In this document: piece after piece, positions 646-18,195 of the stretch | How the letters are laid out: each line of letters opens with the position of its first letter | Position numbering within the stretch: the stretch's first letter is position 1 | The notes under the pieces: model-generated | Told to the model about the DNA's origin: nothing | The model's input: the letters and a program-made list of their open reading frames with translations, nothing else | The model's database searches: none | Program-made: the position numbers and the translations under genes | Origin: Patescibacteria group bacterium | GTDB lineage: Bacteria > Patescibacteriota > Minisyncoccia > Minisyncoccales > PEYH01 | Reading direction: 5' to 3' | Assembly: GCA_018817645.1 (NCBI GenBank) | Contig: JAHITK010000003.1 | Span: 9,922 to 73,921 of the forward strand | DNA: 64,000 nucleotides

Positions 646-2193
646 ATGAGTTGTAAAATATTCTCCGGCGCGGTGGTCGGCTTGGAAACTCAAATCATTG
701 AGGTGGAATCAGATATTTCCTACGGATTGAGGAGTTTTGAGATTGTCGGCCTGCCCGATAAGGCGGTAGAAGAATCAAAAGAAAGAGTAAGGTCAGCCAT
801 AAAATCCTGCGGGCTTCATCCTCCTTTTTCAAAACCGGAAAGAATTTTGATTAATTTGGCCCCCGCTGATTTAAAAAAAGAGGGCTCGCTTTATGACCTG
901 CCCATTGCCATTGCCTATCTCGTAAAAAGCAAACAAATCAACGCGGATTGCGAAGGGAAAATGTTTGCCGGAGAATTGTCGTTAGACGGAACCCTGCGCC
1001 CGGTCAAAGGAGCGCTTTCTTTTGCGCTTGAAGCCAATAAAGCAGGATTTTCCGAAATAATCCTGCCAATTGAAAATGTTAAAGAAGCGGCTCTGTGTCA
1101 AATTAATGCCAATAAAAACAATTTAAGAATAATCGGAATTGATTCCTTGCAAACCGCAATAAATTATCTGGAAGGGAAAATAAACATTGAGCCGGCAATG
1201 CTGGATATGAAAGAGGTTATTAAAAACAATGACTACCGGATTGGGTTGGACTGGGTGAGGGGACAAGAGCATGCCAAAAGGGCGCTGGTGATTGCCGCGG
1301 CCGGAGCCCACAACCTCCTGTTTATCGGGCCGCCGGGCGGAGGAAAAAGCTTACTGGCAAAGTCCCTGCCCTCAATCCTACCTGACTTGTCAGTGGAAGA
1401 AATGCTTGAGCTCACCAAAATCTACAGCATTTCCGGAATGCTCTCCAAGGAAGAACCGATTGTGACAAAGAGACCTTTCCGCGCCGCCCACCATACTGCT
1501 TCCAAGGTTTCAATAATCGGCGGAGGCACTCCGGTCCGTCCGGGTGAAATTACTCTTGCCCACCGGGGAATCTTGTTTTTAGACGAATTCCCGGAATTTA
1601 ACAAAGACGTATTGGAGGCCCTGCGGCAGCCCCTGGAAGACGGAACTATAACCGTAATGCGGGCAACCCAAAGAATCACCTTTCCCTGCCATTTCAGTTT
1701 GATTGCCGCGGCCAACCCCTGCCCTTGCGGGCATTTGAACGACCCGAACCATCCCTGTTCCTGCGTTCCCTCACAAATAGCAAAATACAAGCGCAAACTT
1801 TCCGGACCAATAATTGACAGGATTGATATGGTGGTGGAATTGCCTCAAGTGCAGTTTGAAAAACTAATCGCTCCCAACAGCAGTCAGGAAACAATTAAGG
1901 CAAGAAGGGAGATAGAAAAAGCGAGAAAAATTCAGAATGAGCGATTTCAAGAGAATAAAGCAATGACTAATAGCGAAATGGAGATACCGGAAATAAAAAA
2001 ATACTGCCAAATAAATTCAGCGACAAATAATATTCTGAGGGGCTATGTTAACTCTGGCAAGCTCTCAGCCCGCGGTTATCATCGGGTATTAAAAATAGCC
2101 CGCACTATTGCGGACTTAGCAGGGACAGAAGAGATTACGCTTGAAAATCTGCATGAGGCATTGATGTACCGCCTCGCTGAATCCTCTTGTTAA
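646..2193 (+). CDS. comM: YifB/ComM family Mg-chelatase-like AAA+ ATPase
   Basis: Walker A GPPGGGKS, Walker B ILFLDEF, Cys-rich CPCG...CSC region, overall ChlI/ComM architecture. Confidence 0.85.
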   Translation: MSCKIFSGAVVGLETQIIEVESDISYGLRSFEIVGLPDKAVEESKERVRSAIKSCGLHPPFSKPERILINLAPADLKKEGSLYDLPIAIAYLVKSKQINADCEGKMFAGELSLDGTLRPVKGALSFALEANKAGFSEIILPIENVKEAALCQINANKNNLRIIGIDSLQTAINYLEGKINIEPAMLDMKEVIKNNDYRIGLDWVRGQEHAKRALVIAAAGAHNLLFIGPPGGGKSLLAKSLPSILPDLSVEEMLELTKIYSISGMLSKEEPIVTKRPFRAAHHTASKVSIIGGGTPVRPGEITLAHRGILFLDEFPEFNKDVLEALRQPLEDGTITVMRATQRITFPCHFSLIAAANPCPCGHLNDPNHPCSCVPSQIAKYKRKLSGPIIDRIDMVVELPQVQFEKLIAPNSSQETIKARREIEKARKIQNERFQENKAMTNSEMEIPEIKKYCQINSATNNILRGYVNSGKLSARGYHRVLKIARTIADLAGTEEITLENLHEALMYRLAESSC

Positions 2194-3188
2194 TACCAAC
2201 TATTTAACGCCAATTTCGCAAACGGATTTACTGCGCCTCGCACTTCAAAATGAAGGTGGCATCCGCCCGGACCAGCAGGGATGGTGTGTCCTGAATAGCC
2301 AATATATCCGATTATCTGGCCTTGAGAAACTTTCTGCCCGGCAGAAACGGCAATCTTTGACATATGGCCGTAGAAAGTAACCACTCCGTTAGGGTGCAGG
2401 ATTCTTACATAGTTGCCTGCCTGTTTATCCCACCCGGTCCTTTGTATTTCCCCTTGGGCAGCGGCAAAAATAGGGGAACCGCATTCGCCGGTTGAAAAAT
2501 CAATGGCATTATACGAGTGAAGTCCTCGGGTGATTCTCCAAGGCGAAGGCACCGGGACGATAAAGTATGAATTAGGGATGGCTGTTGTTGGAGCCGAATA
2601 TGTTTTTATCAATGCTGGCTTAACGCCTCCGGGGATAATCAGAATATCTCCCACAACAACGGTCCCGTTTTCCGGCAAATTATTAAAAGCAATGATGCCG
2701 TCCTGCGATGCTTTGTAATCCCTTGCTATCTCGCTTATGGTGTCCCCGTTTTGCACAATATACATAGCGCCTGTCACAGGCAGGATAATCAATGTTTTGC
2801 CGACAATGAGAGTTGATTTTGCGGTTAAATTATTTGCCCAAAGGATAGTTTCTGCGCTAATATCAAATTGTTGGGCAACACTACTGATAGTATCGCCTTT
2901 CTGAATAACATACTCCTCCACTCCGGTTTCATTATGGCTTGTCCCACTGCCGGCCCCTAATGATGCTAAGGCCTTATAATCCAGGACTGTCGAGGCGGAA
3001 ACCGCCAATAAACTGTTATCTTGAATGGAGAACAAATCGGGATAGTGTTTTTTCTCCTCCCCTTGGCAAAGAGTGGAACAGGAAGATTGCGAGGAATTCT
3101 CTTCGCTTAAAATATTCGAAATGGCTGGTGTAATAACCGAAGAATCCTTACTGCTTGCATTGACGATAAGGATTGCTACGAGGAACAA
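2190..3188 (-). CDS. Secreted LysM-LysM-M23 family metallopeptidase (TTG start)
   Basis: Two LysM motifs (YVIQKGDTISSVAQQF..., YIVQNGDTISEIARDY...). M23 motifs HSYNAIDF and SGHTIPAGPGGCHLHFEV. Hydrophobic N-terminus. Confidence 0.8.
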   Translation of the reverse strand: MFLVAILIVNASSKDSSVITPAISNILSEENSSQSSCSTLCQGEEKKHYPDLFSIQDNSLLAVSASTVLDYKALASLGAGSGTSHNETGVEEYVIQKGDTISSVAQQFDISAETILWANNLTAKSTLIVGKTLIILPVTGAMYIVQNGDTISEIARDYKASQDGIIAFNNLPENGTVVVGDILIIPGGVKPALIKTYSAPTTAIPNSYFIVPVPSPWRITRGLHSYNAIDFSTGECGSPIFAAAQGEIQRTGWDKQAGNYVRILHPNGVVTFYGHMSKIAVSAGQKVSQGQIIGYIGYSGHTIPAGPGGCHLHFEVRGAVNPFAKLALNSWY

Positions 3189-4274: not shown

Positions 4275-6686
4275 ATGAAATTAAAAAACTTCCTTATCAC
4301 ATCAAAGCAGAAAATTTTCCTTTGGCTGGTTTTTGCCATTACTATGATTTTTGCGCCTACGCATCCTGTTAGGGCGCAATTCGGCATAGAAATCTTGACC
4401 GCGCCCTTTGTTTTTCTGGCAAAACTGGGAATGGCCCTTCTTATCGCCCTGCCTCTCTCTTTCTTCTGCCTTGAAATAGCCCAGATATTTCTAACCTGGG
4501 CCGCTAACCCAAATTTAGTGGGAGGAGTTGCCAGTAATACCTTCGTCCAGGCGGGCTGGACAGTGGTCAGGGATTTTGCCAATCTCTTTTTCATTTTAAT
4601 CGTGGTGGCCATTGGAATAGCCACCGCTTTGAGAGTCAAGCAATACGAAGTAAGAAAGACCCTGCCCCGCTTGATTATTGTCGCCATATTGATAAATTTC
4701 TCGCCCGTAATCTGCGGAGCAGTGATAGACGCAGCCAATATCATTACTAACTTCTTTTTTACCGCCGGCGCCGGGGGATTCGACAACGTCATCACTTTTT
4801 CAAAGGGCTCTTGGGGTTGGTTAAAAGAGAATTTTGGCACCATTAGCGGTGTTTGGGCGGAAATTAGGACAGGCAGAATTTTCTTCAAAATGATAGCCGT
4901 GACTGTATTCAACCTTTTCGGAGCATTTGTCTTATTCTTAATGGGAATACTTTTCATTGTAAGAAATCTCGCTCTGTGGATTTTGGTGATCTTGTCACCT
5001 TTGGCGTTCTTAGGAGCCATATTGCCAAAAGGCGCAGTGATTCCGGGGGTCCCAAAGAAAAAAAATATTTTTGGCATGTGGCGCGACCAATTCGTAAAAT
5101 GGGTTTTTATCGGAGTCACCGGTTCCTTCTTCCTTTATTTGAGCCAGCTGATGATGCAACTACAAGTAAAATCCCTTTTTAACAATCAAGGGCCTACCAC
5201 AGAAGCATCGGAAGTCGGAGGAAATATAATGACCGGCTTAATGATAATGGCCGTACCTTTGATTTTCCTTGGCATAGGGTATTTTGTCACTGTTTCCAGC
5301 TCCGCGCAGGGCGCCGGCGCTATCACAGGATTAGCTAAAAAGGGGTTCGCCTATGGGAAAAAGACAGCCCAAGGTGCGGCGATAAACAGACTAAGAAAAG
5401 ACATAGGGCAACCGATAAAAAATAGTTATGGAAGCGCTAAAAGAACTGTCCAAAAAGCGGCTGGAAGAATAATATCAGCCCGGCCAACCGATGCCGAACG
5501 AAAGGCGAGTTGGGATCAATCCTCTGGCTTAGGAAGGGCTGGCAAGATTGTGGCCAGAGCCGTGATTCCTTATAAAACCAGAGAAAGATGGAAAGCTCAA
5601 GCAACGGCAAAAATAAAAGAAGGGGACGTAGGTAAGGTGGAAAAAGCAAAGGCAGAAGCAAATAAATTAAATACTGCGGAAGCGCGCAAGGCGGGATATT
5701 TAGAAGCCAAGAAACAACGCGACAAGGAAAAACAACTCGGCTATATTCAGTCAGCCATAGAAAAAGGAGAATTAGACGGTTATTCAAATCAAGAAATTCA
5801 GCGCGCTATACGAGATGCCGGACAAATCAATAAAAAATTGGCAGAGGAAATAATGCAATCCGCACCCAATTTGGCCAAACAGGTTTATGACGAATATCAT
5901 CAAGCGCATCCGAATATAATGAATGAATATAACAATCTAAACACACAGCGAAATGATTTAGACGCTCAACGGATAGCTGCCCAGAATGCGGGCAACAATG
6001 GTTTAGCAAATCAGTTACAAGGACAAATGGACGCATTACAAAGGCAGATGGATAGAGCCAAGCGACCAGCAGACGAGAGAGGTCTATGGATATCGCCTGA
6101 AGACACGCAGCGTTACGGCGGATTGGAGGAAAAAATTGTACTTACTACTAAAACAAAGGATGTCGGTAAATTTAGAAAAAATTACGTAAAGACAAACAGA
6201 TTTATGGAAATTATTCAGGATGAAGCTCATCAAGGGAAAAATGCTTGGTCTGGAAACAACTTATCAAAAATAGCGGAAGAATATGGAACGCCCGTAGCTG
6301 ACCTGTATAATGCCACATCTGACAGAATAAATCGAGCCGGAAACTGGATGCATAATATCGCTGGAAAACGTCACCACATAAAAAGATATATTACAAACAA
6401 CCCCGGAGCTATTGCGGCAGGATATAGACTTCCCGAAGGTGTTTCTGAAGATGATGATGGAGACGATGAAGGAAAGAAAATAATAATCCCGTCTTCAACC
6501 AATGCAAGGACAACTAGCAAGGAAAATATGGATGAAAAACAAAGAGCAGAAATGGAAGAAGAGTCTAGAAGGAAAAGTGAGGAAAGTTCCAGAAGGCGGG
6601 AACCTAATCCTGATGAAAGGGGCGACCGCGGTGAAGAGGAAAGAGAGGGAAGGGGCGGACGCGAGCCCAGAGATGACGAAAGGTAA
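4275..6686 (+). CDS. VirB6/TrbL-like polytopic membrane protein with a long charged coiled-coil C-terminal tail
   Basis: Signal-like N-terminus, at least 6 hydrophobic helices in the first 400 aa, then a roughly 400-aa K/E/R-rich tail ending RRKSEESSRRREPNPDERGDRGEEE. Located next to the VirB4-like genes. Confidence 0.45.
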   Translation: MKLKNFLITSKQKIFLWLVFAITMIFAPTHPVRAQFGIEILTAPFVFLAKLGMALLIALPLSFFCLEIAQIFLTWAANPNLVGGVASNTFVQAGWTVVRDFANLFFILIVVAIGIATALRVKQYEVRKTLPRLIIVAILINFSPVICGAVIDAANIITNFFFTAGAGGFDNVITFSKGSWGWLKENFGTISGVWAEIRTGRIFFKMIAVTVFNLFGAFVLFLMGILFIVRNLALWILVILSPLAFLGAILPKGAVIPGVPKKKNIFGMWRDQFVKWVFIGVTGSFFLYLSQLMMQLQVKSLFNNQGPTTEASEVGGNIMTGLMIMAVPLIFLGIGYFVTVSSSAQGAGAITGLAKKGFAYGKKTAQGAAINRLRKDIGQPIKNSYGSAKRTVQKAAGRIISARPTDAERKASWDQSSGLGRAGKIVARAVIPYKTRERWKAQATAKIKEGDVGKVEKAKAEANKLNTAEARKAGYLEAKKQRDKEKQLGYIQSAIEKGELDGYSNQEIQRAIRDAGQINKKLAEEIMQSAPNLAKQVYDEYHQAHPNIMNEYNNLNTQRNDLDAQRIAAQNAGNNGLANQLQGQMDALQRQMDRAKRPADERGLWISPEDTQRYGGLEEKIVLTTKTKDVGKFRKNYVKTNRFMEIIQDEAHQGKNAWSGNNLSKIAEEYGTPVADLYNATSDRINRAGNWMHNIAGKRHHIKRYITNNPGAIAAGYRLPEGVSEDDDGDDEGKKIIIPSSTNARTTSKENMDEKQRAEMEEESRRKSEESSRRREPNPDERGDRGEEEREGRGGREPRDDER

Positions 6687-6697
6687 ATAAAAATTTA

Positions 6698-6730
6698 AAA
6701 CAGGGCTGTCCCTCCGGACAGCCCTGTTTG
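6698..6730. terminator. Bidirectional stem-loop terminator between convergent genes
   Basis: AAACAGGGCTGTCC-CTCC-GGACAGCCCTGTTT, a perfect 14-bp stem. Confidence 0.7.
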
Positions 6731-6741
6731 GCTTCCACCTC

Positions 6742-8013
6742 CTATGCCGACTCTTCTTCTGATTTTGGGGTCGGCTTTTTCTTGTCTGCCGGCTCATTGG
6801 TTGCAGCAGATTGTAGCCATTTCAGCAGGAGCGCCGGGACTGCCCCAAGGGATCCCTTCTCTCCGCCTCCCTGATTCAGGGCAACTGCCCATGCTCCTCC
6901 ATGCTTAGCAAGAGTATCTGTCAGCTCAAAGGCCAAGGCCGTCCTTAGTGCCTCGGACTCCTCTCCCATCCCCGCTCCTTGGAGTTTTTCCTTCATATCC
7001 AGCACGGGTCCAATTCGCTCCGCGCTCTCTTGAAGGGCCTTATACAGGGCTGCTTCTGTCTTAAGCTTCTCTACCCGCACGCGCTCGCGGGCTTCCTCAA
7101 TCTCCTTGGAGAGCTTAACAGCTCCGCAAAAGGCCCCTGTAATCTGTAGTATGCCTCTTTGGTGGGCATCTATGGTAATGAGGTTGTCCAAGCTCGCAGC
7201 GATACCCCTATAGAGCTTTGGAAGAGGGATTAGGCGGGTGATTTCTTCATCAAGATCCTCTATCGCCGGGTTAGACATATCCGGCACCGCGTCAATAGCT
7301 GTCATCGTCGCAAGGAGCGTTTTTTTCAGCGCCCTCACTCTCTTCAGTTTTTCCTTGGCAACGCCCTCGGCTTCGCGGATTCGGTCCAAGATGTTATCAC
7401 GGATCATTCCCTCGTCAGTCGCTTCTGCGACTGTAAGGGTTTGTATATACCCCACGATAAGCGAATTGGCCTTATTCCGAATCCAGTCCGGCCAATCTTG
7501 GACGCCGTACACCGCTGCCACGATATCGCCAAACCCAACACCCATTTTCAAGACGAGGGTGTAATCTCGAAGATAGATGACCCCATCATGTATTTGGATC
7601 TTGGGCAGTTCCCCTGGCGGTAGGGGGATGAGGTCAAGCACCCTTTCGTGCGGCCTCATCAACTTTCCCTTCGTATCTATGAAGGGTATCGTCAGGTGAA
7701 TGCCCGGACAGAGAGCGTCTTTCCTCCTTCCGAACCTCAAGCGGAGCCATGTTTCCGGCTCTGGAACAATCCATACGCCCCAGCAAACTAAGCCCCCGAG
7801 CGCAAGGATCTCCCCAAGAAACGACCAGCCCTTGGGAATCGCGAAGAGGCCCAAAACGAATATCAAGAGTCCAGCCCAAAAACCGACATTGGCAAAAATC
7901 CTGAAAATTCGTCTCTGCACCTCTACCCCTCTTTCTTGTCCTTGGCGCCCTACTCCTTGCCCTGCTCTCGCGGCAACCTGTCCAGTTGCAACCTCTGTTG
8001 GCATTTTGCCCAT
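6742..8013 (-). CDS. SPFH/band-7 (stomatin/HflC-like) membrane protein, anomalously GC-rich
   Basis: TM segment then VPEPETWLRLRFGRR...LTIPFID...IQIHDGVIYLRDYTLV fits the SPFH fold, followed by a coiled-coil tail. Local GC is visibly far above the surrounding genome. Confidence 0.6.
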   Translation of the reverse strand: MGKMPTEVATGQVAARAGQGVGRQGQERGVEVQRRIFRIFANVGFWAGLLIFVLGLFAIPKGWSFLGEILALGGLVCWGVWIVPEPETWLRLRFGRRKDALCPGIHLTIPFIDTKGKLMRPHERVLDLIPLPPGELPKIQIHDGVIYLRDYTLVLKMGVGFGDIVAAVYGVQDWPDWIRNKANSLIVGYIQTLTVAEATDEGMIRDNILDRIREAEGVAKEKLKRVRALKKTLLATMTAIDAVPDMSNPAIEDLDEEITRLIPLPKLYRGIAASLDNLITIDAHQRGILQITGAFCGAVKLSKEIEEARERVRVEKLKTEAALYKALQESAERIGPVLDMKEKLQGAGMGEESEALRTALAFELTDTLAKHGGAWAVALNQGGGEKGSLGAVPALLLKWLQSAATNEPADKKKPTPKSEEESA

Positions 8014-8681: not shown

Positions 8682-8810
8682 CAAATCAAGTAAAATCCCA
8701 ATGTCAAAATCCAAATGACAAATCAAGCCCAAAATCCAAAATTATTATTATTTGACATTTGGATTTGGGATTTGATTTGATATCTGACATTTGGGCTTTG
8801 GATTTTTAAC
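8682..8810. repeat. AT-rich imperfect palindrome built from CAAAATCCAAA / TTTGGATTTTG units (MITE-like)
   Basis: Left arm ...caaaatccaaatgacaaatcaagcccaaaatccaaaat, right arm atttgacatttggatttgggatttgatttg...gctttggattttt. Same family as 19956-20131. Confidence 0.6.
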
Positions 8811-8811
8811 T

Positions 8812-9228
8812 ATGGAGTATCCTCTGCCACAATTTTTATCAATAAAACCAAAGGTTGCCGGACCCCTTAATTTAATGCAACTGTTGTATATCGTGGGCGG
8901 GGCAATCGTGGCCGTTATTTTCTACTTCACCGCTTCCCTCACCACCTTTATCATAATGGGCATCCCGATTATGGTGGTTGCTTTGATTTTGGCTTTTGGC
9001 AAAAGAAAAGGATTCCCGATTCCCACCATCATCGGCCGTTCTTTTATGTTTATCTTTGCCAGTAAAAGATATCTCTGGAAAAAAGTGGACACGCCGGCAA
9101 TCGTGCTTCCAAAAGCGACCAAGGCAAAGGCCGCAGAATTAGAAGACGATAAAGCGGTGAGCTTAAAAATTTCCGGCCAGAGCAGATTGAAAGAAATTGG
9201 GCGGCTGATTGAAATTCATCCCAAGTAA
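8812..9228 (+). CDS. Small two-TM membrane protein (VirB3-like position); the ORF track starts at TTG 8791
   Basis: Two long hydrophobic helices. Immediately precedes the VirB4-like genes. Confidence 0.4.
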   Translation: MEYPLPQFLSIKPKVAGPLNLMQLLYIVGGAIVAVIFYFTASLTTFIIMGIPIMVVALILAFGKRKGFPIPTIIGRSFMFIFASKRYLWKKVDTPAIVLPKATKAKAAELEDDKAVSLKISGQSRLKEIGRLIEIHPK

Positions 9229-9242
9229 ACTAATTTTGTATT

Positions 9243-9881
9243 ATGAATCTTTCATCCCAACAATTCCTGCCATTAGAACAAATAAAAGAGGGCATTATGA
9301 TATTGAAGGACCATAGTTTGAGGGGCATAATGATGGCCTCCTCCCTTAATTTCGCCCTCAAAGCCACTGACGAGCAGGAAGCGATTATTTATCAATTCCA
9401 GACATTTTTAAATGCTTTAGATTTTTCCTGCCAAATCTTTATCGCTTCAAGAAAAGTGAATATTACCGGCTATCTGGAAAAACTAAAAGAAGTGGAGAAA
9501 AAACACGAGAATGAATTGATGGCTGCCCAGACCAGGGAATACCGGAAGTTTATTGAAAAAATAGTGGCTGGCGGTTCCATCATGAATAAAAATTTCTACA
9601 TAATCGTGCCTTTTTACCTCTCGGAAATGTACGGAGGCGCTACCAAAGGAGGAATACTCACTCTAAAAGCAGCGCCGACCTTAACCGAAGAAATGTTCCA
9701 AAGGGCAAAATCTCAACTTTATCAAAGAATGGAATTTCTGTCTTTGGGCTTGAGAAGGTGCGGGGTTTGGAGCGTTGCCTTACAGAGCGAAGAATTAATA
9801 GAGCTTTTATGGAGTATGTCCCACCCCAAAGAATCCTCTGTCGGCTATTACCCGGAGATTCCGCCTGAATTAATACAATAA
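9243..9881 (+). CDS. VirB4/TraC-family N-terminal domain encoded as a separate ORF
   Basis: ILKDHSLRGIMMASSLNFALKATDEQEAI... resembles the N-terminal segment of conjugative VirB4 ATPases. The stop is 8 nt before the next ORF. Confidence 0.4.
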   Translation: MNLSSQQFLPLEQIKEGIMILKDHSLRGIMMASSLNFALKATDEQEAIIYQFQTFLNALDFSCQIFIASRKVNITGYLEKLKEVEKKHENELMAAQTREYRKFIEKIVAGGSIMNKNFYIIVPFYLSEMYGGATKGGILTLKAAPTLTEEMFQRAKSQLYQRMEFLSLGLRRCGVWSVALQSEELIELLWSMSHPKESSVGYYPEIPPELIQ

Positions 9882-9889
9882 CGAATAAA

Positions 9890-12800
9890 ATGAAACTGCC
9901 TTCTTTAAGTGAATTATTGGGAAGAAAGACGGCCTATGAAGCCGGCGCGGAACCGCAAGCAATGAATTTGCTTGATTTTATCGCTCCGCCGGCCATTACC
10001 ATCGGGTCTGATTATTTCCAAATCGGGGAAAAATTCGCCAAATCATATTTTATCTTTTCCTATCCAAGATATTTGAGCACCGGGTGGCTGGCGCCGATTA
10101 TAAACCTGGATATTCCTTTGGATATCTCCATTTTCTTTCATCCGATTGACACTGGGCTTGTTTTGAAAAAATTAAGCAAAAAGGTTACCGAGGTTCAGTC
10201 CGAGATTATGGAAAAAGAGGAAAAGGGACTGATTCGAGACCCGGTGCTGGAAACCGCGTACAAAGATATTGAGATATTAAGAGACCGGCTCCAAACAGCG
10301 CAGGAAAGAATGTTTAGGATAGGGCTTTACCTGACCATATACGCTGACGATAAAAAGGAATTGGAAAAAATAGAGGGCACGATTCGCTCGATTCTGGAAT
10401 CAAAATTGGTCTATATAAAACCAGCTCTCTACCAGCAGGACCGGGCGATGGTTTCCGCCTATCCCGCAGGCATAGACCGGCTTCAGGTGCATACCTCCAT
10501 CAATACCAGCCCGCTTTCCACAATTTTCCCTTTCGTGTCTTTTGATTTGAGTTCCAATGAAGGAATCCTTTACGGAATCAATCAGCATAACAGTTCGCTG
10601 GTCTTGTTTGACCGATTCAGCTTGGAGAACGCTAACTCGGTCGTGTTCGGAAAAAGCGGCGGCGGCAAAAGCGTTTTATCATTTGAGCCGGTGCTGATAA
10701 GCGAAAACGGCCAAACCAAAGTTGAAAATATCGGCAAAGTGGTGGAAAGAGCGATAGAAAAATACGGGTGTCAAAAAATTGACGAGGAGCTGGAAGGAGC
10801 GCTAAATCCATCCATTAAGGTTTGGAGTTTTGATAAAAATCTTAAAGGCAGTTGGTCAACAGTGACAGTCGCGGCCAGGAAAAAAGCCCCTGAAACATTT
10901 TATAAATTCAGAACCCGGAGCGGGAGAGAAGTGAGCACAACCGGAGACCATAATATGCTAATCATCAGAAACGGACAAATCGTGGCTGAGAAAAGCGCTG
11001 AAATCAAGGCAGGGGAATTCATCCCGTTGTCCAGAAAAATTTCCGAAAACTCCTCTCCGGATAAATTCATAAACCTGCTTGAATTGTTGAAAAACTCCCG
11101 CTTGATTTATATTTCCAAGGCGGAAAAAATCATTAAAAAATATTATCATCAGATAAAAAATCTTGAAGGGAATTCCTCGTTAGGGAAATATCTCTATAAA
11201 TACAAGGCTGGCCGGAGAATTCCTATTAAATATTTCTTGGAAATCATCAATTCTTTAAAAATTCCGGAAGCCGAGTTTAATGATTTGAAGATTGTTTCCA
11301 AAAACGGAGACCTCGGCAATGGTTTGAAGATAAACCTACCTATTTCAGCCGACTTATTGAAAATAATCGGTTTTATAACATCAGAAGGGACAGTGGGCGA
11401 ACACTTTATAAATATCAGCAACCAGGACGAGGGATTCATCAAGGAGTGTATGGATTCTTTCAGAAATATTGGAATCCCCTGTTATCGGACAGATAAAGCG
11501 GTTATTTGCGCCAGCCGCGTTTTCACGGAAATCATCAAATCATTGGGCGGAAAACAAAAATCCGGAAACAAAAAGGTATTGCCATTCATATTCAATGCGG
11601 AAAAAGAAAAAATCGCGCCATTTCTTTCCGCTTATTTTGAAGGAGACGGGGAGGTGGAACATAATAAAATATGTGTCACGACCAAATCAAAACAATTATC
11701 ATCTGAAATCTCTTATCTGCTTTATTATTTTGGAATCATTGCCCGGATTCAAAAGAAAATCAAATACGCAGCCAATACGAAAAAGAAACTTAAACAAACA
11801 TACTGGCAGATTTCTATATCAGGCAAAAGCGATTTGGAAAAATTTGCCCAAGAAATCGGGTTCATTTCCGGCAGAAAAACAAATAAACTGAACAGTATCA
11901 TAAAAGAAAACGGAAATACCAATGTTGATATAATTCCGGGTCTGACCTCGTTATTTGGAGAAATGTACAATGCCTGCCCTCCGCTTCTTATGGGGATGCC
12001 GGAAATTTCCGCCCTGAAGTGCGGGGTTTATAATCCTTCGCCGGATAATTTAAAAAGAATAATAGAAAAAATAGAAAAAAGGGTTGTTTATTTTAAAGAG
12101 CGGGGAGAACAAATAAAAATCCTGTCGGAATTGCCTAGAATTCAGGAATTAATTGAGCGCGGAGAAAGCGATAAATCGCTAAACAAGGAATTATGGAATT
12201 ATCTTGGCCCCAGCTGGCAACTTGTAAAAACCAACCAAGTTGACCCGGGCTTTGAAAATGTATCAAAAATCATCAATGTAATTTATGGCAATGATTATAA
12301 TCTGTCGGAAATCAAAAAAGAGATTCATCAGGGATTCAAAGAAATGGATATCTCTATTAAGGACTATAATCGCACCGTCCAGTCGGCATTAATAGACAGA
12401 CCGGATTCGAATACCAGATACCGCACCATTCAACAAGCCGGTCAGCTCATTTGGCAGAGATACCAGACAGTTTTAAGAAATGGCCTTCCAAAAATTGAGA
12501 ACACGCTTACGCGCCTAAAAACTCTGGCCAATTCTGATTTATTCTTTGATGAAATTGTCAGCATTGAAAAAATTGCCAACCAGAACGAGCAATATGTTTA
12601 TGACTTAACGGTGGACAATGAAGTGTTTCTCTGCGGGAACGGCGGAATGTTCGTGCATAATTCTTACGCTGTCAAGTTGGAGGTTTTACGGTCGTTAATG
12701 CTTGGAATTGAATCAATTATCATTGACCCGGAAAACGAGTATAAATTCCTCTCCGACGCAGTGGGCGGCAAGTTTTACAATATCTCTTTGGCCTCGGAAA

Positions 12801-13681
12801 GTCATATTAATCCTTTTGACCTGCCCGAACCGTTGGAAGGTGAAGGCCCAAAAGATGTCCTGCGCTCCAATATTATCAATTTGGTCGGGCTGATGAGAAT
12901 AATGCTTAGCGGGCTTACGCCGGAAGAGGACTCCATTATTGACCAGGCGATTAACGAAACATACGCGGCCCGCGACATTACCGCAGACACAGATCCTGTT
13001 TTATGGAAAGAAAGAGTGCCTTTGCTGGCTGATTTGGAGTCAGTGCTGGAAACAATGGAAGGCGCTGAATCGCTGGTTAAGCGATTAAGAAAATTCACCA
13101 AAGGCGTCTACGCGGGATTCTTTAATTATCCGACAAATATAATAATGGACAATCCCTTGGTCGTTTTCGGCATTAAAAACCTGGAAACGGAATTAAGGCC
13201 GTTGGCGATGTTCATTGTTATGCGCTACATCTGGAATGCCATCAAAGAGGATTTGAAAAAAAGAATCTTGGTGATTGATGAGGCCTGGTGGCTGATGCAG
13301 ACAGAGGACAGCGCCTCTTTCCTCTACGGAATTGTAAAAAGAGGCAGAAAATACTGGCTCGGCACAACCACCATCACCCAAGATGTCAATGATTTTATGA
13401 AATCAGAATACGGCCAGCCGATTATTACCAACTCTTCTCTGCAGTTATTGATGAAACAATCGCCCGCCACTATTGAAGTGGTAAAGGAAACATTCAACCT
13501 CACTGACCAGGAGAAATATCTTCTTTTGGAAGCGCCGATCGGCGAAGGAATATTTTTTGCCGGGGAAAAACATGTTTCCATCAGAGTGGTTGCTTCTTAC
13601 GCCGAAGACCAGATTATCACCACCTCGCCCGAAGAAATGATTAAAATCAAAAAACTTAAAAAAATAAGAGAAAATGCCTGA
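9890..13681 (+). CDS. VirB4/TrbE-like T4SS ATPase interrupted by an in-frame intein
   Basis: Walker A VVFGKSGGGKS then, after the insert, the VirB4 IIIDPENEY motif. Walker B ILVIDEAWWL. Extein about 600 aa. Confidence 0.8.
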   Translation: MKLPSLSELLGRKTAYEAGAEPQAMNLLDFIAPPAITIGSDYFQIGEKFAKSYFIFSYPRYLSTGWLAPIINLDIPLDISIFFHPIDTGLVLKKLSKKVTEVQSEIMEKEEKGLIRDPVLETAYKDIEILRDRLQTAQERMFRIGLYLTIYADDKKELEKIEGTIRSILESKLVYIKPALYQQDRAMVSAYPAGIDRLQVHTSINTSPLSTIFPFVSFDLSSNEGILYGINQHNSSLVLFDRFSLENANSVVFGKSGGGKSVLSFEPVLISENGQTKVENIGKVVERAIEKYGCQKIDEELEGALNPSIKVWSFDKNLKGSWSTVTVAARKKAPETFYKFRTRSGREVSTTGDHNMLIIRNGQIVAEKSAEIKAGEFIPLSRKISENSSPDKFINLLELLKNSRLIYISKAEKIIKKYYHQIKNLEGNSSLGKYLYKYKAGRRIPIKYFLEIINSLKIPEAEFNDLKIVSKNGDLGNGLKINLPISADLLKIIGFITSEGTVGEHFINISNQDEGFIKECMDSFRNIGIPCYRTDKAVICASRVFTEIIKSLGGKQKSGNKKVLPFIFNAEKEKIAPFLSAYFEGDGEVEHNKICVTTKSKQLSSEISYLLYYFGIIARIQKKIKYAANTKKKLKQTYWQISISGKSDLEKFAQEIGFISGRKTNKLNSIIKENGNTNVDIIPGLTSLFGEMYNACPPLLMGMPEISALKCGVYNPSPDNLKRIIEKIEKRVVYFKERGEQIKILSELPRIQELIERGESDKSLNKELWNYLGPSWQLVKTNQVDPGFENVSKIINVIYGNDYNLSEIKKEIHQGFKEMDISIKDYNRTVQSALIDRPDSNTRYRTIQQAGQLIWQRYQTVLRNGLPKIENTLTRLKTLANSDLFFDEIVSIEKIANQNEQYVYDLTVDNEVFLCGNGGMFVHNSYAVKLEVLRSLMLGIESIIIDPENEYKFLSDAVGGKFYNISLASESHINPFDLPEPLEGEGPKDVLRSNIINLVGLMRIMLSGLTPEEDSIIDQAINETYAARDITADTDPVLWKERVPLLADLESVLETMEGAESLVKRLRKFTKGVYAGFFNYPTNIIMDNPLVVFGIKNLETELRPLAMFIVMRYIWNAIKEDLKKRILVIDEAWWLMQTEDSASFLYGIVKRGRKYWLGTTTITQDVNDFMKSEYGQPIITNSSLQLLMKQSPATIEVVKETFNLTDQEKYLLLEAPIGEGIFFAGEKHVSIRVVASYAEDQIITTSPEEMIKIKKLKKIRENA
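10679..12661 (+). mobile_element. Intein (about 661 aa) with LAGLIDADG homing-endonuclease domain, inserted 3 residues after the P-loop
   Basis: N-splice SFEPVLISENGQ...IG (Hint block A, Ser1). Two LAGLIDADG-type motifs, LLKIIGFITSEGTV and APFLSAYFEGDGEV. C-terminal blocks VYDLTVDNEVFLCGNGGMFVHN followed by +1 Ser. Confidence 0.8.
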
Positions 13682-13973
13682 AACAATGTCGGCAATGGGG
13701 ATTATGAAACTGCTAATCGCTATCATATTGGACGGCGCTACTCTCATTTGTTTATGGTTTTACACTCTTGGTGGTCCGGGGATATTTATCGGCGAAACTC
13801 TTTCCTATGTCCCCAAAATATTAAGCTTGGTCTTTCTCGGGGGTTGGAGTTTATCAGGCAAAGATAAAAAAATAAATATGGGGAATAAGAAGGTCTTATG
13901 GAAACTTATTCCTGGAATCGGAAATCTTCCTTTTAATACTCTAAACCAGATAACCGCGCTTAACGCTGCTTAA
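13674..13973 (+). CDS. Small hydrophobic membrane protein (pilin/VirB2-like candidate)
   Basis: 99 aa, two hydrophobic helices. Overlaps the VirB4 stop by 8 nt (translational coupling). Confidence 0.35.
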   Translation: MPETMSAMGIMKLLIAIILDGATLICLWFYTLGGPGIFIGETLSYVPKILSLVFLGGWSLSGKDKKINMGNKKVLWKLIPGIGNLPFNTLNQITALNAA

Positions 13974-13994: not shown

Positions 13995-16568
13995 ATGTCC
14001 GGTAAAAAAAACATTCTTTTTATCGCCTTGGTTTTGCTGGCTGTTTTTTTATTAACAATAATCCATTGTTCAACCGTAAGCGCAGCTAAATTAGAGAATA
14101 TCTATCCAAATATCCCAGGAGCAGTAACACCAACCACTACTGAAACGCCCCTGCCTGTATTATTCAAATATCTCTACAATCTTTCCATTATTTTAGCCGG
14201 AGTTATCGCCTTTGTGGTCACGGTCTGGGGAGGGATTAGATACATTTTAGCCGGTCCCCAGCCCGGAAAATTGACGGATGCCAGAGAGCAAATCGCTCTC
14301 GGATTTGTAGGAATGATAATTATTTTTGGCTCATATGTCATTGTAAACACCATAAATCCCGATTTCACGAAACTAACCGTAATCCTGCCGGTTAATAAAT
14401 TCACCGGCACCCTTCCGCCGCCAAGCGATACTTCTAATATTGATATCGGCCTTTTTGAGATCCCGGTCGGTTCAATCATTACCTCTGAATTCGGGGCTTC
14501 TTCTTTTCTGGCAACCACCAGCCCTGATATTGATTACGCCAATACCGAATGGCCGTCAGCCACTACCAGCACCAGCACTTATGACACCGACTTTCAGGGC
14601 GCTCTTTTCGGGGCGCGTTTAAGGCGGGTTTATGAGGTGGCAAGCACTACTGTGCCGGCGGCCCAAAAACTTCACGATTTGAGCACGGAACTCAAAGACC
14701 TTACAGATGACTGCACTTGCATGTATGAATGCCAAGGAAATTTCGCAATAGTATGTGAAACAGATGAGAATTGCGGTTGCGACGAAGGATATCTGTGCAG
14801 TGACGACACAAAAGATAAAATGAAAGAAAAAATAACGGAAATCGGGTCTTTAAAAGACGCTTTCAAGGCATTTTTAAATCCTAACTCTCTGGTGAAGGAT
14901 TATTATAATAATAACCAGTCCGATATTGACGGTCTGGATGATAATGAAATAAAAGACATCATCCAAACGATGATTGAAGTGGAAAATAAAGGAGGATACA
15001 GTCCGAAAACAGATCTTTTAGAAAGAGATGTAGGAAGAAATCTTTTTGAAATGACTTTTCTTATAAACGATATGAAGAAGATAAAAAGAATGCTTAATCC
15101 TTACGACCAGGATGTGGGATTTTTAAGTTTGCTGACCTTTGCCGAAGCCACCACCTTAGAATCCACTATGGATGTCAGCTCTACGATTTATAATTATTAT
15201 GTCACTTTTGCCTCCGGCTTGGAAAAAATTGACGAAAAAAACGACCCAGCCACTTTTTATTCCGCCGCCACCCTGCCTTACCCTTATGGACCGCCCGGCA
15301 CCCAGCCCTATAATCAGAATATCCCCGAGCCCGACCTCTTGCAATACTTAGATAAACAAAAAATATCTTATCCTGAAAATATCGCTTTCGCAGACGAGCC
15401 CTATACTCCGCCGGATGTAAAATTTAATTTTGACACCCCACCAACCACCGGCGGGGTCTGCAATTATATCGTGGAAATACCCATTGGCCGGGCTCTTGAT
15501 GAAGCCATTAAACTTGCCCAAGCCATCAATAAAGAATTATTCAATATTTTTATTAAAGGGCAGGCGGAAATAATCGGCGCTAATATGTTAATAAAGGCAG
15601 CGGAAAAATTCGCAGACCTGAAATGTGCTGACGGCTGCATTCAGCCAAAATGTTTGGAGGAACTTGGAGTACCTGGTTGTGTCCCTCCTAGTATAGTTCT
15701 TCTTGGTTGGAAATGCTATCCCAATGGGGAAACGGTGTTGTTAAACGCATATACTGGTATCGCTATGGATCTTATTAAGTTGACCACTATCCCGGGCATA
15801 AATCTCGCGCTGGACGATATTGAAACCTCATTTAAAAAATTGGACTCCCAGGAGCCGATTTTAACCGACTATGTCTGCCCAGACATAGAAGGAAATTGCC
15901 TGAGCAAAGACGGCACAGTCCAAGATGACAAAATAGAAAAAAGGGAGTATACTTTAAAAGATAAACTAATCGAGGTCCAACTTTTATTGGACCGCTCCCG
16001 AGAACTGGTGGGCCAAGCCAAAGAAAAAAGCGTTTATGAAATATTGCTGGAGGACTATATCGCTCTTGATCTTGGGGAATATTATAAAAATTTATTGGAT
16101 TACATAAGGGGGATTGACTCTATCAATAAAACCGACCTTCAGGACTGCCACATAATGTCCGGCACCATCAAAAAAATAGAGGGCAAAAACTACAGCACCT
16201 CATTGATGAATTGCCGGGATGCCAAACTCTTGGACCTGATAGATTTTCACGATAAAGAAGTGTGCAGTCCCAACCCTTACCTCGACGCCAATTTTTATTT
16301 AAACCCTGATGCACGCGCCTTACGGCCAATCAGTTGTTATTGCTATGACGAGGATGCTGACAAAAATTACTATAACAAAAGCGATTTCCCGGAACTTTAT
16401 CAGAGTGTAAGCCTTGTCATTCCCAGTTTTGCGGCTGATATAGAAGATTTAGACGCTGACGCTTTGCAGGATATGGCAAACCAATGGCAGGATGCCCGCA
16501 TAGATTTGAATAATTTCGCCGGGTTTGGTAATGATTATTTTTGCTGCATAAAGAACTATGAAGAATAA
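13995..16568 (+). CDS. Large secreted Cys-rich protein with pilin-like two-helix N-terminal module
   Basis: Signal/TM, then KYLYNLSIILAGVIAFVVTVWGGIRYILAG...LTDAREQIALGFVGMIIIFGSYVIVNTINPDF, then about 700 aa rich in Cys clusters (CTCMYECQG..CETDENCGCDEGYLC). Confidence 0.5.
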   Translation: MSGKKNILFIALVLLAVFLLTIIHCSTVSAAKLENIYPNIPGAVTPTTTETPLPVLFKYLYNLSIILAGVIAFVVTVWGGIRYILAGPQPGKLTDAREQIALGFVGMIIIFGSYVIVNTINPDFTKLTVILPVNKFTGTLPPPSDTSNIDIGLFEIPVGSIITSEFGASSFLATTSPDIDYANTEWPSATTSTSTYDTDFQGALFGARLRRVYEVASTTVPAAQKLHDLSTELKDLTDDCTCMYECQGNFAIVCETDENCGCDEGYLCSDDTKDKMKEKITEIGSLKDAFKAFLNPNSLVKDYYNNNQSDIDGLDDNEIKDIIQTMIEVENKGGYSPKTDLLERDVGRNLFEMTFLINDMKKIKRMLNPYDQDVGFLSLLTFAEATTLESTMDVSSTIYNYYVTFASGLEKIDEKNDPATFYSAATLPYPYGPPGTQPYNQNIPEPDLLQYLDKQKISYPENIAFADEPYTPPDVKFNFDTPPTTGGVCNYIVEIPIGRALDEAIKLAQAINKELFNIFIKGQAEIIGANMLIKAAEKFADLKCADGCIQPKCLEELGVPGCVPPSIVLLGWKCYPNGETVLLNAYTGIAMDLIKLTTIPGINLALDDIETSFKKLDSQEPILTDYVCPDIEGNCLSKDGTVQDDKIEKREYTLKDKLIEVQLLLDRSRELVGQAKEKSVYEILLEDYIALDLGEYYKNLLDYIRGIDSINKTDLQDCHIMSGTIKKIEGKNYSTSLMNCRDAKLLDLIDFHDKEVCSPNPYLDANFYLNPDARALRPISCYCYDEDADKNYYNKSDFPELYQSVSLVIPSFAADIEDLDADALQDMANQWQDARIDLNNFAGFGNDYFCCIKNYEE

Positions 16569-18195
16569 AAAGATAAAAAAAATCGTATTGATAATGAGCA
16601 TTTTAGCGGTTCTTTCCTGCGCCGGCTTAATATACGCCCAAGACAGCGATAGTTCGCTTGAATTAGAATATCCCACTTTAGGCGGGATGCAAGGTCCCCA
16701 AAGCACCAGCGTCAAATTAACAACCTATATCCGCTATCTTTATAACTTCGCCATTATCAGCGGCGGGCTGATCGCTTTATTGTCCCTAATTTACGGCGGA
16801 TTTCGGTTTTTGACCTCTACTGGCAATCCAGCTGCCATCACTGACGCCCGGGGACAAATTTTAGCCGGCTTCCTTGGCCTAGTGGTTATTTTGGGCTCAT
16901 ATATAATACTCAATGAACTGAATCCTGATTTAATATCTTTACGAACTCCGGGTATTACGAAACACGGAAAAGGAATAATCTTATACAACCAAGCCAACTG
17001 CGGAGGATTAGGGGATTATGCCGACACCCCTGAAACTACCGATAATATTCCAGACGGACTTCTTTATAAAGCAATAAATAGCAGCGGTTCAGCAACGCTG
17101 GGGAAAAACCAAGATGGAAAAGATATCCTGCCTGTTTCTTTATACTCTTTCCAAGATTCAGAACAATTAATAATACAATTCTATGCTAATGAAGATTGTA
17201 AAAACAATGTCCTTCCCTCGCCCAAACTACAAGCAAACCAATGCTTGGAGATTGATGCCTCCAATGTTAAATGCATAAAATTTATCTGGTACAAACCCGG
17301 GGTCTGGGTGTTCAATAGATTAGATGACGGAGGCAGTGTGCCTGACCCGGGCGACTTGCCTCTTAATTGGGAGGAAGGCAAGGACTACATAGTGGTTCAG
17401 GGCAATCAGGATTCTCTACCCGACAAGTTTAGCGACAAGGTTTTGGGCATAGCAATTGTGCCCAGTAAAGAGTCGCGGGGAGGATTAGGGCAAAACTATG
17501 GCGTAATTGCCCATAATATGTCCGGCGGTATATCGGAAGAAAAGGGCTGGGCGCATATTTATCTTCCCGGATGCGGCTCTACCAAAAAATGCAAAATGAT
17601 GAGAGGAGAGATAACCGTATTCGGTCCATTTTATGACCCCAATAAAGATTATGACTCTGACACCAATAACTACGAATTTTCCCACATCTCTTCTTTAACG
17701 ATATTTAATGTTCCAAAAACAGAGGAAACAAGCAGTAAAGAGATAAAGGTTTGCCGGCAGGATCGCTGTGAGCCGCAATGGGTGGGCGATAAGTCATATG
17801 ATGTTTCTAAAACATACTCTCCCGCAAGCGGGCTTAGAGAAATAACCGGCACTTTTGGCAAGGCGGTTTCTCCTTACAACCCCGGTAAGAGTATAATATA
17901 TGGAATAAGTTTTGAAGGCGTAGAATGGGATGGTACCAATAAAGCCATCGCAATTAGAGAGCATGACCCTAAGTTTGACGATGTACAAGAGGGAGTATCA
18001 GCTATTGAAATAGACGAAGGAGCCCATTATTTACTGCTCCTTTACGAACATTTTATTGATGATTTTTCAAAAATCAATGAAAATGTTTCCACTGACGCAG
18101 CCATTATCAATATATCCCAAACATCTTTGAGAACCATCCAGATGAATGACCGGGTGGGCACCATTATCGTTATCAGGACAGAGGCGAAGGATTAA
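16558..18195 (+). CDS. Paralogous secreted protein with the same pilin-like N-terminal module
   Basis: RYLYNFAIISGGLIALLSLIYGGFRFLTS...ITDARGQILAGFLGLVVILGSYIILNELNPDL aligns residue-for-residue with the 13995 protein. The C-terminal domain differs. Confidence 0.5.
   Translation: MKNKKIKKIVLIMSILAVLSCAGLIYAQDSDSSLELEYPTLGGMQGPQSTSVKLTTYIRYLYNFAIISGGLIALLSLIYGGFRFLTSTGNPAAITDARGQILAGFLGLVVILGSYIILNELNPDLISLRTPGITKHGKGIILYNQANCGGLGDYADTPETTDNIPDGLLYKAINSSGSATLGKNQDGKDILPVSLYSFQDSEQLIIQFYANEDCKNNVLPSPKLQANQCLEIDASNVKCIKFIWYKPGVWVFNRLDDGGSVPDPGDLPLNWEEGKDYIVVQGNQDSLPDKFSDKVLGIAIVPSKESRGGLGQNYGVIAHNMSGGISEEKGWAHIYLPGCGSTKKCKMMRGEITVFGPFYDPNKDYDSDTNNYEFSHISSLTIFNVPKTEETSSKEIKVCRQDRCEPQWVGDKSYDVSKTYSPASGLREITGTFGKAVSPYNPGKSIIYGISFEGVEWDGTNKAIAIREHDPKFDDVQEGVSAIEIDEGAHYLLLLYEHFIDDFSKINENVSTDAAIINISQTSLRTIQMNDRVGTIIVIRTEAKD

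Follow-up and report, generated by a model that had tools for sequence, protein, structure and literature searches.

Genes A and B and their shared N-terminal module

We analyzed a 64,000-nt stretch (hereafter the window) of contig JAHITK010000003.1 from the Patescibacteria group bacterium assembly GCA_018817645.1, and in particular two adjacent genes in it, here called A and B. Gene A (13995..16568, plus strand; 857 aa) and gene B (16558..18195, plus strand; 545 aa) were delimited as open reading frames (ORFs). Their products match exactly the NCBI entries MBU1045592.1 and MBU1045593.1, both of which carry the name 'pilin [Patescibacteria group bacterium]'. The coding regions overlap by 11 nt, and an MKNKK start common to B orthologues favors the start at 16558 over the shorter call of the Joint Genome Institute. 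Scans for promoters and terminators were uninformative. A chromosomal type IV secretion system (T4SS) operon close to the replication origin ends with A and B. As an earlier note on this DNA had surmised, a secretion apparatus is indeed encoded next to them, with PrgI/VirB3, TrsD-like and VirB4 genes directly upstream. Downstream of B, the minus strand carries jag, yidC and rnpA; next come dnaA (20258) and dnaN (21879), so the locus abuts the replication origin.

Both proteins begin with a predicted signal peptide, assigned by inspection and hydropathy with the cleavage site read by eye. In A, a predicted Sec signal spans residues 1–30 (13995..14084, plus strand), with cleavage between ...TVSA and AK; it has a basic n-region, a hydrophobic core (residues 1–33) and small residues at –3/–1. 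In B, the signal spans residues 1–27 (16558..16638, plus strand), with cleavage between ...LIYA and QD. The mature pilin module follows directly in each case. For A it comprises residues 31–125 (14085..14369, plus strand), delimited by alignment with B, AlphaFold2 (AF2) models and hydropathy, and reads LE.YP, helix 1, DAR.Q loop, helix 2, NPD. For B it comprises residues 28–127 (16639..16938, plus strand), as judged from alignments and AF2 helices. Hydropathy plots show three hydrophobic segments in each protein (leader 1–33, ∼53–87 and ∼98–121) and zero further ones in either C-terminal part. AF2 models the latter two segments as a helical hairpin, at residues 53–85/90–119 of A and 54–86/91–121 of B, with predicted local distance difference test (pLDDT) values of about 55–67. 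Low-confidence linkers follow, at residues ∼120–150 of A and ∼116–200 of B. Hydropathy and the AF2 hairpins thus bear out the two hydrophobic helices joined by a DAR loop that had been proposed from the sequence.

By prediction, A and B insert into the membrane and carry a domain on the outside; they would not be freely secreted. We infer a topology that would involve Sec insertion, removal of the leader, a cytoplasmic DAR.Q loop and a C-terminal domain on the outside; the many conserved cysteines and the lack of any further hydrophobic segment are consistent with this last placement. The description 'giant secreted proteins' in the earlier note therefore does not hold: the two are large for pilins, not giant.

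The N-terminal regions of A and B align closely. BLASTP pairs residues 10–127 of A with residues 6–128 of B at 37% identity and 59% positives (E = 1e-24), and nothing aligns between the remainders of the two proteins. To gauge this similarity against that expected of any hydrophobic sequence, the modules were compared without their signal peptides. The local alignment score was 216, versus 28 ± 5 for random composition-preserving shuffles (z = 38) and 32 ± 7 for shuffles that preserve the hydrophobic/polar pattern (z = 28). The similarity hence far exceeds generic hydrophobicity. Pairwise alignment thus confirms the match of the two N-termini, and the motifs quoted for it (YLYN, GG.R(Y/F), TDAR.QI and NPD) are present and conserved across 14 sequences of both families. 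In these sequences, Y.Y(N) opens helix 1 and GG.R(Y/F) closes it; P...DA(R/K).QI lies in the loop; and (N).(I/L)NP(D/E/Q) stands past helix 2. LE.YP is kept immediately past the predicted cleavage site. The shared region had been described as two helices, which it contains, yet it also includes this conserved mature N-terminus (LE.YP..PG), so it does not consist of helices alone.

In every orthologue pair, the module is better conserved than the C-terminal domain (46–83% versus 34–75% for A; 51–88% versus 40–65% for B). This fits a hairpin constrained by the machine and a freer external domain. Homologues of A number 13 besides the identical NCBI entry (29–75% identity), and those of B about 12 at full length (41–66% identity).

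A and B are anciently diverged paralogues of the PF18895 'T4SS_pilin' family (Type IV secretion system pilin). The family model matches A at residues 61–120 with 27.2 bits (cut-off 26.6) and B at residues 53–112 with 24.3 bits (E = 3.3e-5), slightly under that cut-off. It also matches all wider relatives, 37 of 37 A-type and 63 of 63 B-type proteins, at E ≤ 0.01 (best 1e-10). A search of other genomes, as the earlier note had proposed, revealed a very large family, some members of which are fused to crystallin-like or hydrolase domains: a profile of the module retrieves 74,395 clusters at E ≤ 0.001 and 16,428 at E ≤ 1e-10, these being 50%-identity clusters among 1.84 billion representatives. 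Other libraries added little. The NCBIfam scan gave far-sub-threshold matches only, including NF045849 (pilin-like, E = 0.03), PADLOC gave none, and DUF4134 was matched in 1 of 63 B-type members. Matches of the module profile in PDB were to sensory-rhodopsin-transducer hairpins (E about 1); we dismissed these, along with Pfam Htr2 matches among the relatives, as generic transmembrane hairpin similarity. Structural matches of the hairpin found by Foldseek (ATP synthase subunit c, encapsulated ferritin) were likewise generic.

For comparison, we inspected 11 related loci, comprising eight GTDB species representatives (L010–L017) and three metagenome or NCBI assemblies (L001–L003). Wherever the contig reaches, the gene order is constant: VirB4, small ORF, A, B, (jag/yidC/rnpA), dnaA, dnaN. 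Orthologues of A and B occur one-to-one in every related locus examined. Identity across loci is 28–70% for A and 30–57% for B, versus 55–91% for VirB4 and 62–89% for DnaA; we count this faster divergence of A and B in favor of surface exposure. Two hidden Markov models (HMMs) of the module, one built from both families and the other from 281 diverse modules, match only A and B within the window. Similarly, only A and B carry the module in nearly all related loci, the exceptions being L014 and L007. L014 has an extra 235-aa ORF (6272–6979) between the small membrane ORF and A, with the pilin hairpin at its C-terminal end. Ahead of the hairpin stands an external domain of ∼140 aa that contains a run of Gly, a domain order opposite to that of A and B. 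L007 has a second module-bearing ORF.

C-terminal regions of A, B and their relatives

Beyond the module, A and B are unrelated to each other by BLASTP, and one of them, A, is Cys-rich, both as first noted from the sequence. The C-terminal 731 residues of A contain 22 Cys, and 18 Cys columns are invariant in 14 A orthologues (C240, C242, C260, C268 and 14 beyond). We distinguish a juxtamembrane subdomain (residues ∼151–300; 14445..14894, plus strand), consisting of an EIPVG strand, a long helix and a Cys cluster and defined by its conservation and its presence in hydrolase-bearing relatives, from the remaining Cys-rich alpha/beta extracytoplasmic region (residues 301–857; 14895..16565, plus strand), which is without a fold match. 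AF2 predicts long confident helices at 206–238, 270–330 and 496–540 (pLDDT 84–94), with pLDDT of 77–94 over residues 200–240 and 270–330. Cys clusters and small sheets lie between the helices, and a Pro-rich stretch (425–494) is disordered.

No Pfam family matches the C-terminal region of A, and two A-family profiles found no sequence match in PDB. Foldseek returned nothing at E ≤ 0.001 for A, the best values being 1.3 in PDB and 0.33 in BFVD. Weak matches to PrgI-SipD (E = 8.3) and complement C8 (E = 0.18) were dismissed as chance. A contains two similar units, each with an EIP(V/I)G strand, a long helix and a Cys cluster, at residues ∼151–270 (14445–14800) and ∼491–575 (15465–15720). Comparison of the two by hhalign gave E = 0.016 and a probability of 2.9%, so an internal duplication is suggestive only.

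The A-type relatives are more revealing. An A-family profile matches protein P0110 over residues 1–280 with an hhalign probability of 99.8%, and it is these residues only (module, EIPxG strand, long helix and Cys cluster) that A and its hydrolase-bearing relatives have in common. At their C-terminal ends, the relatives carry NlpC/P60 (P0110, P0149), Peptidase_C39_2 (P0156, P0074), M23 (P0122) or, in one member, an SLT_3 lysozyme-like domain. The gene for P0156 has ksgA on one side and large unassigned ORFs on the other, with comM-like, LysM-M23 and Band_7 genes nearby, as at the window locus. The enzyme families of these relatives are those of the VirB1-like hydrolases of Gram-positive T4SSs. 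Like PrgK of pCF10, TraG of pIP501 and TcpG of pCW3, the A-type relatives join an N-terminal membrane element to hydrolase or papain-like domains, in T4SS loci. A itself differs from PrgK, TraG and TcpG in having no recognizable hydrolase domain, and a pilin module anchors it in place of one transmembrane helix.

B contains 8 Cys, and its C-terminal region is of another kind. From about residue 200 the AF2 model is beta-rich (pLDDT mostly 70–88), and the top Foldseek matches in PDB are gamma-crystallins (E = 0.05, probability 0.92, template modeling score of 0.58 on the target). Among 63 B-type proteins, Pfam assigns Crystall (PF00030) to 11, Crystall_3 to 5 and Inhibitor_I36, which we take to have the same fold as crystallins, to 8. 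A profile of the wider B family matches Protein S (2.9e-4), 3hzb (8.4e-4), beta-B2 crystallins (0.01) and spherulin 3a (0.04). When the window orthologues are left out, the profile matches Protein S at 4.6e-5, and hhalign pairs it with the orthologue profile across 401 columns with a probability of 100%. The crystallin-matching profile positions map to B residues ∼200–540 (17155..18177, plus strand), which AF2, Foldseek and the family profiles together mark as a putative beta/gamma-crystallin-like region. For the family, the assignment has good support; for B of the window it is indirect, being drawn from profiles and models. Microbial beta/gamma-crystallins (Protein S of Myxococcus, spherulin 3a, clostrillin and the 3hzb 'carbohydrate binding protein') match the B-type C-terminal region at E values from 4.6e-5 to 0.013. 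The B-type domain differs from them in being fused to a T4SS pilin module.

To see how common such fusions are, we examined the 150 best representatives retrieved by the module profile, a list skewed to relatives of the query and uninformative on the share of long forms in the whole family. One N-terminal module was present in 128, with a median C-terminal extension of 372 residues; tandem modules, 2–16 in number, were present in 44. By single-linkage BLAST clustering of the C-terminal extensions, the long single-module proteins split into A-type and B-type groups, a procedure that overstates their homogeneity. In direct BLAST comparisons, 18 of 36 A-type proteins had any match to the C-terminal region of A (10 over most of it), and 12 of 62 B-type proteins had any match to that of B (8 over most of it). 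Tandem-hairpin proteins occur among P0030–P0097, for example P0068 (1775 aa) and P0079 (1147 aa), with later copies that have no signal peptide. They would be either 'poly-pilin' multi-pass membrane proteins or gene-calling artefacts.

Possible roles of A and B

Several elements of this locus are already annotated or published, namely the pilin module, tandem paralogues and a dnaA-adjacent T4SS. Quinonero-Coronel et al. (2025) described the MPF-FATA-related T4SS of Patescibacteria as VirB4 with TrsD, PrgI/VirB3, VirB6 and VirB2-like pilins, usually relaxase-free (PMC12102498), often located beside dnaA, dnaN, rnpA and ksgA (PMC12102498). Their survey counted 441 tandem VirB2 arrays of 2–11 genes, with an average identity of 25% and a maximum of 54% (PMC12102498). 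Wang et al. (2023) showed that Southlakia epibionticum depends on its T4SS, and on the predicted pilin subunits of this system, for growth as an epibiont (PMC10633639), and peptidase and lysozyme homologues directly 3' of Southlakia virB4 are also essential (PMC12102498). The pilins of the S. epibionticum ML1 cluster (SEML1_0006–0019), of the 'Sec-secreted array' of Nanosynbacter lyticus TM7x and of the 441 surveyed arrays belong to PF18895, like A and B. These arrays also resemble the A/B pair in being tandem divergent paralogues (37% identity here), near virB4/TrsD/PrgI and dnaA/dnaN/rnpA/ksgA, in a relaxase-free vicinity. Whereas the published arrays consist of 2–11 genes for small pilins, there are exactly two genes here, each with an external domain of 420–730 aa, and no short pilin in the locus or window. 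In the searchable literature, we found no one-to-one pair of large pilin fusions as the sole pilin-module genes of a locus, no beta/gamma-crystallin-like pilin family and no pilin-hydrolase fusions.

We propose, with a probability of roughly one-half (0.5), that A and B are pilin fusions assembled by the T4SS, stacked into an extracellular stalk or short pilus that displays their domains. The hairpin would be the assembly module: pulled from the membrane by the VirB4 ATPase and a VirB6-like platform, hairpins would pile up into a stalk or short pilus, as occurs classically for VirB2. The C-terminal domains would then be on the outside; both ends of the pilin point outward in the conjugative pili whose structures are solved. 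The linkers of low model confidence (residues 120–150 of A and 116–200 of B) could let the bulky domains splay outward. B might serve as a stable contact domain, possibly Ca2+-binding or carbohydrate-binding, and A as a distal or tip-like element, a hydrolase or papain-like peptidase being found at the A position in related lineages. The presence of such enzymes at this position suggests action on a cell wall, either the bacterium's own or its host's. VirB5/TraC-type minor pilins are pilus-tip adhesins. These and those minor pilins of type IV pili that bear large C-terminal domains might be likened to A in combining a filament-compatible N-terminus with a larger distal contact domain, and A has long confident helices (206–238, 270–294 and 496–540). 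The analogy is purely functional: A has no fold or sequence match to VirB5, and its N-terminus is a complete pilin hairpin rather than a single helix. A and B may have adhesin or tip roles.

How far the pilin label itself can be taken deserves comment. Like classical VirB2 (Agrobacterium), TrbC (RP4) and TraA (F), A and B have a signal peptide and two hydrophobic helices with a short polar loop, and they are encoded with VirB3, VirB4 and VirB6 homologues. Classical pilins, of roughly 70–120 residues and with no extra domain, differ from A and B (857 and 545 aa), whose host, moreover, is monoderm. At about 100 aa, the size typical of the VirB2/TrbC functional class is clearly exceeded. The TrbC/VirB2-type resemblance proposed in the earlier note thus holds as to the PF18895 match, the NCBI name and the T4SS context, and finds no support from sequence: hhalign of the module alignment with three VirB2/TrbC sequences of Agrobacterium, Sinorhizobium and Acetobacter, a narrow VirB2 profile, gave a probability of 0.3%. 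'VirB2-like' is accordingly a label based on architecture, gene context and Pfam curation, not on any sequence similarity seen here.

This low hhalign probability is one of several points that weigh against assembly of A and B into a filament of displayed domains. PF04956, the classical VirB2/TrbC family, has zero matches in A, B and the 37 + 63 relatives. Polymerization of PF18895 proteins rests on no experiment or structure, and the hairpin models reach only moderate confidence (pLDDT about 55–67). A domain of 420–730 residues on each subunit would crowd a VirB2-type filament unless the linkers splay the domains, or unless A and B are minor components. Outside the window, the genome might also encode a short plain pilin. 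As for the domains, Pfam detects no SLT, NlpC/P60-CHAP or M23 catalytic domain in A itself and no Crystall match in B itself, and profiles of close B orthologues alone fail to reach crystallins.

The alternative that survives best is that A and B are static envelope components. The hairpin would anchor them to VirB6/VirB4, and the external domains would build a part that spans the wall or S-layer, in a VirB8/VirB10-like or PrgK-like role, with no pilus made. We regard this as possible, though clearly less probable than a filament. PrgK and TraG hydrolases are membrane-anchored at their N-termini, and the A-type relatives carry the same hydrolase families as these two proteins. Large domains are sterically awkward in a filament, and A and B are kept one-to-one, like structural subunits. 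Monoderm T4SSs are, in addition, generally pilus-free, and library scans detected no VirB8 or VirB10 homologue at the locus (PMC12102498). Yet a plain anchor needs neither invariant polar and aromatic motifs nor conservation above that of the displayed domain. Tens of thousands of clusters, moreover, contain this module, among them short proteins of pilin size and tandem arrays (PMC12102498), and the core machine changes more slowly than A and B do.

It is rather unlikely, in our estimate, that A and B are cargo with a pilin-like export tag, whose C-terminal domains are delivered to or released onto the host as effectors, lytic in relatives and binding or toxin-like with a crystallin fold here. 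Relatives with the same N-terminal ∼280 residues do carry varied enzyme domains. Killer toxins and protease inhibitors are among the members of the beta/gamma-crystallin superfamily, and Inhibitor_I36 is found in 8 of 63 B-type members. Given that a coupling protein and relaxase are absent from the window, protein-related functions are plausible (PMC10633639). Neither protein, however, has an evident cleavage site or release mechanism, and a Sec signal peptide would bring it to the outside independently of the T4SS. Known T4SS effectors have C-terminal signals and use a coupling protein, which is absent here.

A generic signal-anchor, in which a hydrophobic leader and anchor have nothing to do with the T4SS, was also considered; two-hydrophobic-helix hairpins are common, and the generic Foldseek and spurious Htr2 matches agree with it, but the shuffles, the PF18895 matches (100 of 100 relatives), the strict synteny with VirB4 and the invariant non-hydrophobic motifs effectively exclude it. 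The doubt raised in the earlier note, that the module might show no conservation beyond hydrophobicity, is answered by the same pattern-preserving shuffles (z = 28) and invariant polar motifs.

As the window contains no relaxase or coupling protein (neither domain was seen among the window ORFs scanned), the operon probably serves an epibiont in contacting its host or exchanging material with it, and not in conjugation. We can also imagine, as a bolder and doubtful extension, that this Paceibacteria-like lineage has a T4SS with no plain pilin, built solely from two domain-bearing pilins. The PF18895 hairpin would then be a portable assembly and display tag with which Patescibacteria mount adhesion domains and cell-wall-cutting enzymes on a host-aimed filament. 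If true, a contact-dependent, pilus-borne lytic or adhesive device would account for the dependence of epibiosis on the T4SS.

Few machines have a demonstrated essential role in the epibiotic life of Patescibacteria. The T4SS is among them, and what it transports or displays is unknown (PMC10633639, PMC12857230). Whether a monoderm T4SS makes a pilus is likewise an open question (PMC10633639, PMC12857230). The A/B pair provides concrete candidates for the business end of this machine, with a module that is joined to peptidoglycan hydrolases in relatives. More generally, 'pilin' names in the databases conceal large multi-domain surface proteins in these genomes.

Other genes of the T4SS locus

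Upstream of A, the T4SS genes lie on the plus strand. The first is a candidate VirB6/PrgH-like polytopic membrane protein of 803 aa (4275..6686), proposed from position and topology only. It has about 6 hydrophobic segments within its first 345 residues and is kept at the same position in L001, L010 and L011; library scans gave no family match. Next is a PrgI family (VirB3-like) membrane protein (8791..9228; PF12666, 30.6 bits, cut-off 27). This PrgI belongs to the VirB3-like PrgI family and is not a needle or pilin protein. It is followed by a TrsD-like, or VirB4 N-terminal-domain-like, protein of 212 aa (9243..9881). The NCBIfam models VirB4_plasma (5.6e-8) and TrsD (0.0018) match it, both far under their curated cut-offs, and its orthologues carry PF26593 (TraC-like).

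The gene for the VirB4-type ATPase (9890..13681) matches Pfam P-loop_TraG, AAA_10, CagE_TrbE_VirB, Intein_splicing and LAGLIDADG_3. Its LAGLIDADG intein (nt 10670–12661; 664 aa) sits inside the Walker A loop (GKSGGGK/S...VHN/S); the intein-less VirB4 orthologue of L001 reads GKSGGGKSYAIKLE at that site. Judged from gene length and Pfam matches, the intein has a patchy distribution, being present in L003/L017 and L014 and absent from L001, L010 and L011.

Between VirB4 and A lies the small ORF, which encodes a conserved 99-aa membrane protein (13674..13973). It overlaps the VirB4 gene by 8 nt, and 21 nt separate its stop from the start of A. By tblastn, homologues with 31–76% identity occupy the same position in L001, L003, L010–L013, L016 and L017. 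The search missed the small ORF in L014 and L015, and L014 has a diverged 86-aa ORF there. The protein has no family match. We considered it as a divergent pilin and rejected this, because the module searches do not match it.

Upstream of the T4SS genes, the minus strand encodes a LysM-LysM-Peptidase_M23 protein (2190–3188), which L001 and L007 also have at this place and which may act as the VirB1-like cell-wall hydrolase of the T4SS. The GC content of the window is 0.50 at 6001–8000, versus about 0.41 elsewhere. This stretch spans the Lys/Glu/Arg-rich tail of the 803-aa protein and a Band_7/SPFH gene (6742–8013, minus strand) that is kept at the same position in related loci. Finally, a 70-aa ORF (415–627) upstream of a comM/Mg-chelatase-like gene (646–2193) copies the first ∼31 residues of that gene and then diverges (MSSKIFSGAVIGLDTQITEVKSDISYGLRSF in the ORF versus MSCKIFSGAVVGLETQIIEVESDISYGLRSF in the comM-like gene), an apparent partial duplication of the comM-like 5' end.

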